Below, one piece after another: positions 14,024 to 17,294 of a stretch of 64,000 bases of DNA (positions within the stretch are counted from its first letter, which is position 1; the number at the start of each line of letters is the position of its first letter). Both the position numbers and the translations under genes were made by a program. This DNA comes from Candidatus Micrarchaeota archaeon (lineage in GTDB: Archaea > Micrarchaeota > Micrarchaeia > Anstonellales > Bilamarchaeaceae): NCBI GenBank assembly GCA_038046805.1, contig JBBSVO010000004.1, positions 32,001 to 96,000 of the forward strand, given 5' to 3'. Under the pieces are notes generated by a model that saw only the letters and a program-made list of their open reading frames with translations, was not told the origin of the DNA and ran no database searches.

Positions 14024-14746
14024 TTAAGCCTTATAAAACGAGAGATATTCCTCTTCAACCGGATGTAATTTTGCCGGAACAATCGCAATGAACGGAGGCT
14101 TGCCGGTGACTTTAGACATGAGATTCTTTGAGTCACCCACTAATATCTTTTCGTCTTCTTCTCCAATTCGCGAGAGCAAGATAACTGTTTTAAACTCTTT
14201 TAGGAATTCCAATGCAGTCTCTGCTGACATAGGTTCTGGTTCAGTATCAAGGAATACTAATGTATGGAGGTTTCGCACCAGATTTTCCCGGATTATATCT
14301 AATGAAGATGTTGGTTTGTAGTTTTCTCTTGGATTAACGAGACTCGCACTTTTCCCGAATCGGTATGCCTGCAATCCGGATTTTCCTATTGCTGCAGTGT
14401 AGATTGATGAATTATGAAAGATTTTTGTCTTGATATTCCGCTTTTTTGCTTCAATTACGAGTGAGATGTGGGTAGTTGCAATAAGCGGATCACCCGAACA
14501 TAAAAGAGCGATATTACTGTTCGCGTTTTCCGCCTTTTTGATTAAAAAATCACTTTCCACTTCGTTTCGTCCGATTAAATTTATTTTTTTTCCGCACGAT
14601 TTTTCGAGTGCAGCGATATTCTTGTCAGAAATTGGATTTGTGTATCTTTCAATGTAAATTTCACCACATTCCTTTAGTTCTTCGATTGCACTAAGCGTAA
14701 GGTCGAATGCAATACCTGTTCCTACGAAAATTAACGTCATAATCAT
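14024..14746 (-). CDS. dph5: Diphthine synthase
   Basis: IERYTN, GDPLIATTH, SGLQAYRFGKS, HTLVFLD, LHPVEEEYL. Confidence 0.92.
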   Translation of the reverse strand: MIMTLIFVGTGIAFDLTLSAIEELKECGEIYIERYTNPISDKNIAALEKSCGKKINLIGRNEVESDFLIKKAENANSNIALLCSGDPLIATTHISLVIEAKKRNIKTKIFHNSSIYTAAIGKSGLQAYRFGKSASLVNPRENYKPTSSLDIIRENLVRNLHTLVFLDTEPEPMSAETALEFLKEFKTVILLSRIGEEDEKILVGDSKNLMSKVTGKPPFIAIVPAKLHPVEEEYLSFYKA

Positions 14747-14819
14747 ACCATTAATAGAAAGCTTTTAACACCTTTTCGTTTATACTATTCAATGCCTTTT
14801 AGGCGAGGTATTTTATGGG

Positions 14820-14878
14820 ATGTCGCGAATGCATTGCATTCACGAGCATGCTCGAGAACGAATCGTCGTTCGCGACAT
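14820..14878. repeat. Nested-palindrome element (branched hairpin)
   Basis: Closing stem ATGTCGCGAA/TTCGCGACAT with internal GAATGC..GCATTC and CGAGCATGCTCG. Confidence 0.7.
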
Positions 14879-14926
14879 GGAGGAAATGGTATTTCCGACA
14901 GAATAAAAATTTAAGGTGAAATTTTT

Positions 14927-15187
14927 ATGGGAAGGGCATTAGGTCAGCTTACGAGAAGTGGAAGAAGCGGAGAACCCAGACGAGATGAGGGAGTTCGTGT
15001 TTTGCATGTCGCTGATGGAAAGACAGTTCAATTTGGTAGTCAAATCCCCACAGAACTCTTTTCTAAGAGATTAACCGGGCTGCTTGAATCATTAAGAGAT
15101 GAACACGGAAGAATACCAGACAATAGAGCTGATTTTATGGCGGCAACTCTTGCTTTTACTTTGCAAGTACAACAATCAAAACAATAA
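14927..15187 (+). CDS. Orphan small protein
   Basis: AAGGTGA RBS; 86-aa ORF with Arg/Gly-rich N-tail. Confidence 0.55.
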   Translation: MGRALGQLTRSGRSGEPRRDEGVRVLHVADGKTVQFGSQIPTELFSKRLTGLLESLRDEHGRIPDNRADFMAATLAFTLQVQQSKQ

Positions 15188-15235
15188 TTTTTCCTCTTTT
15201 GATTTTTAAGAATTAGATTTTATTATTTTCGTTTT

Positions 15236-15511
15236 GAGGATGTTTTAGGGCCCAGGTGACTCGCTTTTACGCGCAAAGCGTCCAATCAAGTATCCCTCAC
15301 GGTTAACTTGTTCCAAACGCCAAGTGCATATAGCCTAGTAAGCAGTCCACGGCATGCAACTAATTAAGCTTTGCAGATCGTTACAAACCCCTTTTACCAA
15401 TCCACAAAACCCTGGAACAATTGCAGAGGCCTAGACATTAGCCAAATGGCTCTTAGGTTACTAAGATTTTTATCAAACCACTTGACCCGCCTGGTATACC
15501 CAAACATCCTC
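15236..15511 (-). ncRNA. Unidentified structured ncRNA (~280-295 nt) with a predicted pseudoknot
   Basis: Ends pair (GAGGAUGUUU/AAACAUCCUC); at least 7 internal helices rich in G-U pairs on the minus strand only; no ORF; TATA-like TTTTAAT ~15550-15556. Confidence 0.7.
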
Positions 15512-15602
15512 CACGAACCCGCGAAGGGAAATAGTATATTTCAATAAGAATTAAAAGGGTATATTTTCACGACGGAAGAAAAAGAACGCAAAAGACTAGG
15601 AA

Positions 15603-16094
15603 CTACGATTTATTCAGATTTACCGCACGCGAAATATCGACGTAATCTAAGATTCTGAACCCTTTCATTTTGCTTAAATTCGCGTTTACCTCGAGAACAT
15701 ATCTGGATTTGGATTTTGGAGTGTAAATCCTGCAAGGATCTGCTTTGCAAGGCTCCATTTCAATAATATCCACGATAGTCCCGTTTGCCGCGATATAAAT
15801 TGTCTCAAGCGGAATTTTTGTATTCTTCATCCAGAAAGGGTGAAAATCGTCGCGGTTCAATAAAAAAAGCATCCCGTGATCGGGTGCGAGCAGCTCACGG
15901 AACATGAGACCTTTAGATATTTCGTCTGGCTCGTCTGCTATTTCAACGAATATTGTTGTGATTGTCGAATTTGTTCCGCTCGCGTTGATTATTTCAATGT
16001 AATTTTTTCCGTTTTCTGTTTCTGAGCCTAAGCAACCAAAAAAGAGAAAAAGAAATGCAAAAACAGCGAAAAGAACAATGTGGTGGTTGCTCAT
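15603..16094 (-). CDS. DUF192-family lipoprotein
   Basis: VEIAD...GLMFR...GMLF...FWMKNTKIPL...YVLEVNA; lipobox FFGC. Confidence 0.9.
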   Translation of the reverse strand: MSNHHIVLFAVFAFLFLFFGCLGSETENGKNYIEIINASGTNSTITTIFVEIADEPDEISKGLMFRELLAPDHGMLFLLNRDDFHPFWMKNTKIPLETIYIAANGTIVDIIEMEPCKADPCRIYTPKSKSRYVLEVNANLSKMKGFRILDYVDISRAVNLNKS

Positions 16095-17200
16095 ATCTTC
16101 TCGAATCTCGCCTTTAGTTTATCCAAAACCTTTGGAAGAGTCGTATATTCCATATCCTCTGCAGGAAGTCTGTGTGGTTCAAAAGGTCCGTGCCTACGCA
16201 TATAATCTGCGATTTTGAGTGCCTTTGCCCTGGTGTGGTCATATGCCTTGTCTTTGAACAGATCTACTGGTCCAACCAGCTTTCCATTCGCTACCTGGAA
16301 TCCCAAAGCAACGACGCGAGGAGGACCATCAAATCGGGTTGGTGTCGCATCTTCCATTGCAACGGGCATCATCGGACCAACGTGCGAACCTCTCATCCAT
16401 CCAGAGACTAGATGTGGAAATGCAAATGGCTCCAAAACCTCACCCAAAGCCGGAAGTCCTGACTGCGCACGAACTATCGCTACCGGATCATCCTTTCCGA
16501 CATATTCCCCAGCTATAAGCGAGAGTTTATCCGTACTTACGCAGGCAACTGCCTCATTTTCTGGGATTTTTCCGCCCTTTTTAGGATAAATACGTTTGAT
16601 AATATATTTACTTTTATTCCCAATTATCGCGAGAAGGTCGTACAATTCTTCTGGGGCGGATAATCTCACTTTCTTGTTTTCATACACGTCGTAAATTTCA
16701 AATACAAATCCGCTGTGCATTGAAGGGTCAATAACAAGTCCCGCGGTGCTAAAAGGATCTGCAAACATCTTGTAGATCGGAAGATTGAATGCGCCCGGAT
16801 CTGTCTTATCCATCAAGAAACATACAATGGGTTCACTTTTGCGCTCTTCAAATTCAAGTTCCGCAACCCCGGGCCCCATTCCTTTTATGTTACCAGAAAA
16901 TGCGTCTGAAAGAAGATCCTGCCCAGCTCCATAAAGCTTCAATTTCTTTGCGATTTCTGTGCATTCCTTGAAAGTATCCCAGGCCAATGTGTGAACCTCT
17001 TTGTTATCAACACCGTGAGTATGAGTCATTATAAGTTCGAGGTCATCCCCGCATGTAGCCACGTAAAAATCAGTGATTATATTCTCTTTTTTTGCCTTTG
17101 AAAGAAGTTCGTTTGCCTTTGCCTTCAAGTCTGGATGCACCGTAGAATGCCCTGGAAATCCACCAACATCTGCTTTAATTATGCTAACCGTTGTTTTCAT
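16091..17200 (-). CDS. fbp: Bifunctional fructose-1,6-bisphosphate aldolase/phosphatase
   Basis: IKADVGG, GDDLEL, LYGAGQDLL, GWMRGSH, RRHGPFEPHRL, MEYTTLP. Confidence 0.96.
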   Translation of the reverse strand: MKTTVSIIKADVGGFPGHSTVHPDLKAKANELLSKAKKENIITDFYVATCGDDLELIMTHTHGVDNKEVHTLAWDTFKECTEIAKKLKLYGAGQDLLSDAFSGNIKGMGPGVAELEFEERKSEPIVCFLMDKTDPGAFNLPIYKMFADPFSTAGLVIDPSMHSGFVFEIYDVYENKKVRLSAPEELYDLLAIIGNKSKYIIKRIYPKKGGKIPENEAVACVSTDKLSLIAGEYVGKDDPVAIVRAQSGLPALGEVLEPFAFPHLVSGWMRGSHVGPMMPVAMEDATPTRFDGPPRVVALGFQVANGKLVGPVDLFKDKAYDHTRAKALKIADYMRRHGPFEPHRLPAEDMEYTTLPKVLDKLKARFEKI

Positions 17201-17294
17201 AAAAAACACCTTCTCTCTCGTTATTTATTTGCAACAAAACCCATCTGTTTTGAATACGCAGCGGTTCAATTTAAATGTTTCGCAGCAATTAATT

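Follow-up and report, generated by a model that had tools for sequence, protein, structure and literature searches.

A BHB-flanked, pseudoknotted RNA gene of Micrarchaeota with a probable 250-nt circular product

Between a DUF192 gene and dph5, the window (the whole stretch of 64,000 nt that was analysed) holds an element on the minus strand for which a preliminary description, made from the letters alone, had proposed a pseudoknotted non-coding RNA of about 280 nt. The locus raises the question which kind of RNA is encoded here, how it matures and what it could do. Based on comparisons with homologous copies and with RNA contigs, we conclude that it very probably represents a new class of circular RNA, made by pairing of a bulge-helix-bulge (BHB) motif, excision and sealing, and folded as a four-way, pseudoknotted circle.

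Locus, splice signal and probable circular product

The RNA gene is present in a single copy in the source genome (1.2 Mb, 16 contigs, 86% complete). Its features and neighbours are listed in Table 1. Among the named homologs of the dph5 protein, most bear a Micrarchaeota label (Ca. Bilamarchaeum, for instance, at 58%). An 86-aa ORF between the RNA gene and dph5 (window 14927-15187, plus strand) yielded no Pfam match. The RNA had been described as lacking an ORF, in agreement with the longest stop-free frames on the circle of 40 aa (sense) and 62 aa (antisense). The TATA-like element reported upstream was likewise found (15556-15549). By eye, most homologs feature a TTTAAA/TTTATA-like box about 25 nt ahead of the precursor start, and the gene probably has its own archaeal promoter.

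Table 1 Features of the RNA gene and its surroundings (window coordinates)
Feature	Position	Strand	Basis or remark
RNA gene element	15236-15529	-	In gap between DUF192 gene and dph5
Mature 250-nt circular RNA	15246..15495	-	Contig joints, cover
Purine-rich BRE-like run	~15563-15569	-	Upstream of TATA-like box
TATA-like TTTTAATT	15549..15556	-	Sequence; putative promoter of the RNA gene
5' leader: short hairpin P0 (starts UCCCUUC) and 5' strand of outer stem P1a; predicted to be removed at maturation	15502..15530	-	Folds, upstream comparison
BHB 5' half: GGGU and 3-nt bulge AUA; predicted cut 15496/15495	15495..15501	-	
Arm 1: 11-bp helix, one-sided A-rich bulge, variable terminal hairpin	15440..15487	-	Covariation, helices 4-6
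Arm 2: P3, CUC bulge, P4, internal loop with 5' pseudoknot strand, 13-bp P5, conserved apical loop	15348..15434	-	Helices 7, 8, 10
Pseudoknot 5' strand	15411..15418	-	Arm 2 internal loop
Arm 2 conserved apical loop: invariant A-N-G-G, then GUA motif	15381..15397	-	Invariant columns
Arm 3: long irregular helix, UAA/GAN-like loop, 2-bp stem, GNRA tetraloop (15300-15297)	15259..15339	-	Helices 11-14
Pseudoknot 3' strand	15310..15317	-	Arm 3 internal loop
BHB 3' half: GCCC and 3-nt bulge UAA; predicted cut 15246/15245	15245..15251	-	
3' trailer (3' strand of P1a), then A/U-rich tract	15236..15245	-	Helix 1
DUF192 gene, upstream neighbour	15603..16094	-	Syntenic marker, partner role unsupported
FBPase V	16091-17209		Precedes DUF192 gene
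dph5 (diphthine synthase), downstream neighbour	14024..14746	-	Syntenic marker

The terminal helix of the preliminary description is present and conserved. What had been overlooked is that this stem is, judging from its pairing pattern, a BHB splice signal and thus a predicted substrate of the archaeal splicing endonuclease. A 4-bp central helix with 3-nt bulges on opposite strands and two flanking helices was found in all 25 parsed copies (G028 was read from alignment A3), with a perfect central helix in 13 and one mismatch in 12 of them. In the window copy, the outer stem needs a 1-nt bulge so that the BHB bulge stays at 3 nt. The central helix (helix 2) shows compensatory changes, and even the disposable outer stem covaries at all nine pairs. 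BHB cleavage falls after the second base of each bulge. The predicted product is a circle of 250 nt (15495 to 15246, minus strand), in which the 3' half of the BHB turns into a 7-nt closing loop and which is flanked by exons consisting of short, variable hairpins. Predicted circle sizes in the homologs are about 250-264 nt, with G120 (314 nt) and G002 (190 nt) as exceptions. In the copy of G120 (L047:1501-1841), arm 1 and the conserved apical loop of arm 2 both carry inserted sequence. In G002 (L048:1501-1717), about 60 nt are missing across arms 1 and 2; this deletion is either an assembly error or natural, and a similar metagenome copy (L272) is intact.

The accessible text of PMC4731332 describes the BHB as substrate of the archaeal splicing endonuclease. 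EndA of the source genome is closest to the epsilon2 enzyme of ARMAN-2 (4FZ2, E 1e-137), a type characterised in the available part of PMC6379350 as cutting relaxed motifs, and RtcB is also encoded. These two would be the enzymes that make the circle.

The BHB and the circularisation were predicted before comparison with RNA contigs. A search of sequencing runs with a 1001-base query returned 24 runs from 15 studies, the best of which held about one quarter of the words. Four of these runs from three studies (X1 and X3, which belong to one study, X10 and X14) were compared as assembled, unstranded contigs. Each of the four contained a 280-nt contig (250 nt plus an overlap of 30) with cover confined to 15245-15495, while the leader, the trailer and the flanking DNA had no contig cover within the 720 bases compared in the four runs. 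The contigs of X1, X10 and X14 include a joint from 15494 to 15245, which goes back 250 nt with an ambiguity of 1 nt; this range includes the predicted joint from 15495 to 15246. In the X3 contig, the wrapped letters appear as loose ends. A single letter is common to both ends of the circle, and the 24-mer spanning the junction does not occur in the genome DNA. In X10 and X14, the RNA is that of a near-identical relative (3-5 differences), and further contigs in these two runs match partially and look like expressed relatives. It is well supported that the mature RNA is a covalently closed circle of 250 nt and not a linear molecule of about 280 nt.

Fold and covariation

Folding of the minus strand gave an MFE of -108.4 kcal/mol (z = -4.26; none of 200 shuffles was as good), compared to a z value of -2.51 for the plus strand. 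All helices named in the preliminary description are indeed complementary strings at 15236-15529 on the minus strand, and comparison of 20 copies supports most of them: P1 (GAGGAUGUU/AACAUCCUC), GGGU/GCCC and CCAGG/CCUGG, the GUCAAGUGGU arm with its small hairpin and UGCAAUU/AGUUGCA, as well as the 13-bp helix, the crossing helix and the GNRA-capped stem. Two helices did not withstand this comparison. In the other 19 rows, pairing is seen in 66 (GUCUAG/CUAGGC) and 54 (CGCUUU/AAAGCG) of 114 cells each, whereas the comparative helices that substitute for them were paired in 103/114 and 91/95 cells. On this alignment, both are considered specific to the source genome.

The alignment used (A3) has 20 rows; the copies of G002 and G120 were left out on account of their large deletion and large insertion, respectively. 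It features 95 pairs in 14 helices, 72 of which change on both sides, and the copies share 43-94% pairwise identity. Overall, 85% of the cells are paired, compared to 68% in shuffles and 30-43% in slid controls, a control that overstates significance because the structure was partly derived from the same sequences and the related copies are not independent.

These pairs support a fold consisting of the outer stem, a 4-bp helix with a 3-nt bulge on each side, a 7-bp closing stem and three arms. The circle itself would be a four-way junction of the closing stem and the three arms, in which a pseudoknot links arm 2 to arm 3. A pseudoknot helix of 6-10 bp is possible in all 24 copies examined, and its sequence is changed but complementary in G009, in G005/G035/G011 and in genus g3. 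Own pairs of the two strands score 8.1, compared to 5.9 for crossed pairs. The g3 rows of A3 are one column out of register, so that the pseudoknot helix (helix 9) scored low there. The name of the UAA/GAN-like loop in arm 3 follows a motif that we take it to resemble. Across 24 copies, 26 columns are invariant, several of them unpaired.

Distribution and genomic context

A DNA search of 61 genomes yielded six clear homologs. Both covariance models, R1 and R2, recovered an identical set of 22 copies, located in 19 of 99 genomes of the family and in 10 of its 23 genera. With these models, 77 genomes from the other families of the order showed no copy, and a phylum sample of 151 genomes returned only family members and one weak partial match (G225, 19 bits, E 0.011). 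A pattern scan of metagenomes gave 18 matches, of which four loci are real according to model R2 and three are distinct; the same kind of scan with one pattern found no match in viral contigs. A looser pattern scan over genome contigs gave at least 80 matches; those listed were scattered across unrelated taxa and were set aside.

At least one of DUF192 and dph5 is found no more than 1.5 kb away from 12 of the 22 genome copies and from all three distinct metagenome copies. In many non-carriers, the two genes still stand in this order, separated by a short gap in which the models find nothing, indicating that the absence at the locus is real there. A deeper search of ten non-carriers, performed without a positive control, gave no match. 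No strong DUF192 match was found in G001, G020 and G026, so that their blanks may be assembly gaps. Overall, the neighbours of the RNA copies are varied housekeeping genes, and a dedicated protein was not among the neighbours examined.

Three genomes of genus g3 carry two copies each. The copies are in tandem in G003 (L233, C45:2441-3079), where the second has no obvious TATA box, inverted and about 4 kb apart in G025 (L234), and on two contigs in G113 (L050/L054). A weak C/D box sRNA-like match lies upstream of one of the G113 copies (L050:1904-1957, plus strand). On a GluRS tree, the carriers need seven changes, six of which are forced by strong branches; this quick, single-gene tree comprises 54 of the 91 genomes with a match and splits several genera. 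The patchy distribution and the duplications in g3 fit an accessory role.

Another conserved element of about 65 nt was observed on the opposite strand in the DUF192-dph5 gap of many non-carriers (L236-L265, L194 and L196; genera g19, g15 and g23). It consists of a 5' CCUUUC/GAAAGG hairpin, a GC-rich stem closing a loop with conserved ACCAUCCCCCU, and a U-rich tract. Its pattern occurs in 32 of 40 g19, two of three g15 and two of two g23 genomes, some of these being chance matches at two mismatches or a second locus, and in one of the 19 carriers of the circle, at two mismatches. Nine of the loci gave no credible Rfam match. The element is possibly a second small RNA.

Identity, role and relation to known systems

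An Rfam search over the window gave nothing at the gathering score. At E ≤ 10, the stretch 14700-15700 had one implausible lncRNA match (9 bits, compared to a cut-off of 70). In 19 homologous loci, nothing in Rfam matched over the RNA. The earlier proposal of a stand-alone structured RNA from a class not in Rfam is upheld by these searches together with the homologs and the covariation, and transcription was found as well.

Individual classes were compared as follows. For SRP RNA (RF01857), neither a model match nor the helix 8 motif was found, as the preliminary description had stated for the latter, and a canonical-looking SRP RNA is encoded elsewhere in the genome (C2:59775-60029). For RNase P RNA (RF00373), there was no model match either, and CR-I/CR-V motifs, reported as missing before, were not visible by eye in the alignment; in 15 of the 19 carriers, a distinct RNase P RNA sits on another contig, for which reason a relic of RNase P RNA is rejected. 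Such a relic was attractive because the source genome encodes HARP (C2:15426-15971) and, at 86% completeness, has no match for RNase P RNA, Rpp29 or Rpp30. Within the family, 82 of 99 genomes have an RNase P RNA match, compared to none of eight in genus g14. A tRNA or rRNA intron is rejected since the flanks rebuild neither, and no tRNA or rRNA surrounds the element; ARAGORN found no tRNA or tmRNA in the window. C/D box sRNA is rejected as well, with box C in one of 20 rows and CUGA only scattered. H/ACA sRNAs had no Rfam match in the window stretch or in the homologous loci, and neither did raiA, ROOL, GOLLD or OLE models match the RNA. No self-cleaving ribozyme as expected for a viroid-like replicon was matched in Rfam, and the gene is chromosomal.

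Possible protein partners were treated likewise. A Y RNA is disfavoured by the lack of a TROVE/Ro60 match in the source genome (86% complete), and an omegaRNA by TnpB-like matches that are unlinked, TnpB and IscB being absent among the neighbours examined. The sole reverse transcriptase found in the source genome is located on another contig (C11:460-1718, L285); it looks DGR-like, is divided between two frames close to a G-rich run and adjoins an Asn-codon-rich, template-like stretch. Resemblances to group I introns, cobalamin riboswitches and T-boxes found no Rfam support. The commonest closing loop reads ACCCUAA. A telomerase-like template is nevertheless rejected and this reading regarded as coincidence, as the loops of genus g7 differ and the genome contains no TTAGGG tandem. 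With respect to antisense or guide functions, no other place in the genome gave a short match better than an E value of 1 (14 nt); shorter guides may exist.

In the open full-text literature, which mostly excludes subscription papers, no description of such an RNA was found. The main text of a 2026 preprint clustering all GTDB intergenic regions (10.64898/2026.10.21.760802), as far as it was accessible, is silent on Micrarchaeota and BHB, and the family might be an unnamed cluster in its supplements. The RNA class is apparently new, as is a gene whose sole purpose seems to be the circle, whereas the BHB maturation route is already known.

For the maturation of this RNA, we propose the following course. 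Its own archaeal promoter would give rise to a precursor of about 300 nt, in which leader and trailer would pair as the BHB, in line with the covariation observed. The broad-specificity epsilon2 splicing endonuclease would cut both bulges and RtcB would seal the 250-nt 'intron', leaving the short exons as by-products. The circle would then fold as a four-way junction with the pseudoknot of arms 2 and 3, for which covariation was also observed. Splicing would free the RCCC strand from the leader, and the new closing loop could, speculatively, dock on the GGG apex of arm 2. Such docking, for which arm 2 could fold back at the pseudoknot loop, would lock the fold or link copies. We regard the docking step as possible, though doubtful. 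The 3' RCCC strand is more conserved than BHB pairing demands, the GG of the apex is invariant and the GGG near-invariant. A flanking loop C was found only alongside an apex G (three of 24 rows, one clade; A-U to G-C), so that the pairing, which has U-U in five of 24 cells, depends on one phylogenetic event. No unmodelled pair stood out in an MI/APC analysis.

The final product would be a long-lived RNA that acts alone or with general RNA-binding proteins. By analogy with raiA, ROOL and GOLLD, a durable accessory structural or scaffold RNA is a plausible function of the circle, which we put forward tentatively. We regard a function as guide, mRNA or replicon as unlikely. A bolder view, which we consider rather doubtful, is that this is the first known gene class solely for circular functional RNA, in which splicing would act as an activation switch, freeing the CCC loop for the GGG apex, so that a precursor without activity would become a compact RNA machine of DPANN archaea, possibly a multimeric or catalytic one.

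Several other explanations have to be weighed against this scaffold function. We consider it unlikely that the RNA is a ribozyme or ligand-binding RNA, with invariant junction and loop residues forming an active site or pocket closed by circularisation. The invariant columns, in part unpaired, and a complexity like that of known ribozymes (pseudoknot, GNRA and UAA/GAN-like motifs) would suit this role. However, no ribozyme or riboswitch of Rfam was matched, excision prevents cis action on a downstream gene, the neighbours vary, and neither the RNase P CR-I/CR-V nor a group I P7 pattern was seen by eye.

It is quite unlikely that the RNA is a selfish or domesticated element of intron-like or viroid-like kind, which would exploit EndA and RtcB of the host without benefit to it. 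Several observations are nevertheless to be expected of such an element: the patchy occurrence with at least six forced changes, the duplicates in g3 (tandem or inverted), the relocation of copies to new loci, and the non-carriers that retain the DUF192-dph5 synteny without it. Against this stand its chromosomal, mostly single-copy nature, a promoter-like box of its own, the shared locus of more than half of the genome copies and all distinct metagenome copies, and the lack of an ORF, a ribozyme, a linked reverse transcriptase and, for the one pattern scanned, viral contig matches.

We assign a similarly small likelihood to a 6S-like or tRNA-like decoy, by which a core machine such as RNA polymerase, the ribosome or the splicing enzymes would be sequestered in starved cells. 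In favour of such mimicry are, weakly since contigs cannot rank genes, a stable RNA in aquifer, groundwater and freshwater runs in which the adjoining 3' part of DUF192 is uncovered, and the 7-nt loop on the closing stem; yet the fold is unlike the rod of 6S type, ARAGORN found neither tRNA nor tmRNA in the window, and the closing loop does not show the U-turn that anticodon loops share.

That the RNA is a known housekeeping RNA in circularly permuted or strongly diverged form is improbable. The permuted SRP RNA of Thermoproteus, which according to the accessible text of PMC4731332 matures by the same route, and the missing matches for RNase P RNA, Rpp29 and Rpp30 make it conceivable, but the canonical-looking SRP RNA on contig C2, the protein-only RNase P HARP, the separate RNase P RNA of most carriers, the lack of a local Rfam match on any homolog and the 80 of 99 family genomes that show no copy all speak against it. 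Finally, the joint could have arisen from a linear structured RNA as an artefact of the library or the assembly, conceivable as it comes from assembled contigs of RNA runs and reverse transcription could go astray at the base of a stem. This is highly improbable given the same joint in three studies at the position predicted from the BHB, with one shared end letter, and a BHB conserved across copies as diverged as these.

Taken together, we prefer the circular RNA class outlined above. As the circle is the conserved product and the flanks look disposable, archaeal BHB splicing would serve here as a dedicated maturation route for an RNA class matching no Rfam family. The small, naturally circular fold, supported by covariation, can be made in vitro and is open to probing and cryo-EM. 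A search for BHB-closed intergenic elements combined with self-closing metatranscriptome contigs may expose archaeal RNAs that were missed by linear models and viroid screens or mistaken for replicons.

Among known systems, the permuted SRP RNA of Thermoproteus is similar: it, too, comes from a free-standing ncRNA gene, and its leader and trailer pair as a BHB, which the tRNA splicing endonuclease cuts to give a circle (accessible text of PMC4731332). That RNA can be recognised as SRP RNA and was rescued from a gene that had been rearranged, whereas the present RNA has no SRP features and the source genome keeps an ordinary SRP RNA. Circular tRNA introns of archaea (including the C/D RNA of the tRNA-Trp intron) and BHB-derived circular pre-16S/23S rRNA, described in the available part of PMC12558985 (see also PMC12918454), share BHB-directed excision and ligation to a circle. 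In contrast to these, the present RNA has neither tRNA or rRNA flanks nor conserved C/D boxes, and its 'intron' is the conserved product while the exons are short, variable hairpins. As far as these partly accessible sources go, known archaeal circular RNAs are mostly by-products or processed forms (tRNA, rRNA, SRP, C/D and omega RNAs). Viroid-like cccRNAs, according to the text available of 10.1101/2022.07.19.500677, are likewise circular, non-coding, about 250 nt in size and obtained from environmental RNA; the present RNA differs in being chromosomally encoded with BHB-forming flanks and branched instead of rod-like, with no self-cleaving ribozyme detected. The raiA motif RNA is presented in the accessible part of PMC12968392 as abundant, single-locus and pseudoknotted, with unknown function. 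Together with ROOL and GOLLD, it shares with the present RNA the character of an orphan, multi-arm, pseudoknotted ncRNA of more than 200 nt without a dedicated protein gene. The present RNA is distinguished from raiA by being archaeal and circular and by one supported internal-loop pseudoknot instead of PK1 and PK2. From what these sources offer, raiA, ROOL and GOLLD provide the best analogy for how the circle may work.
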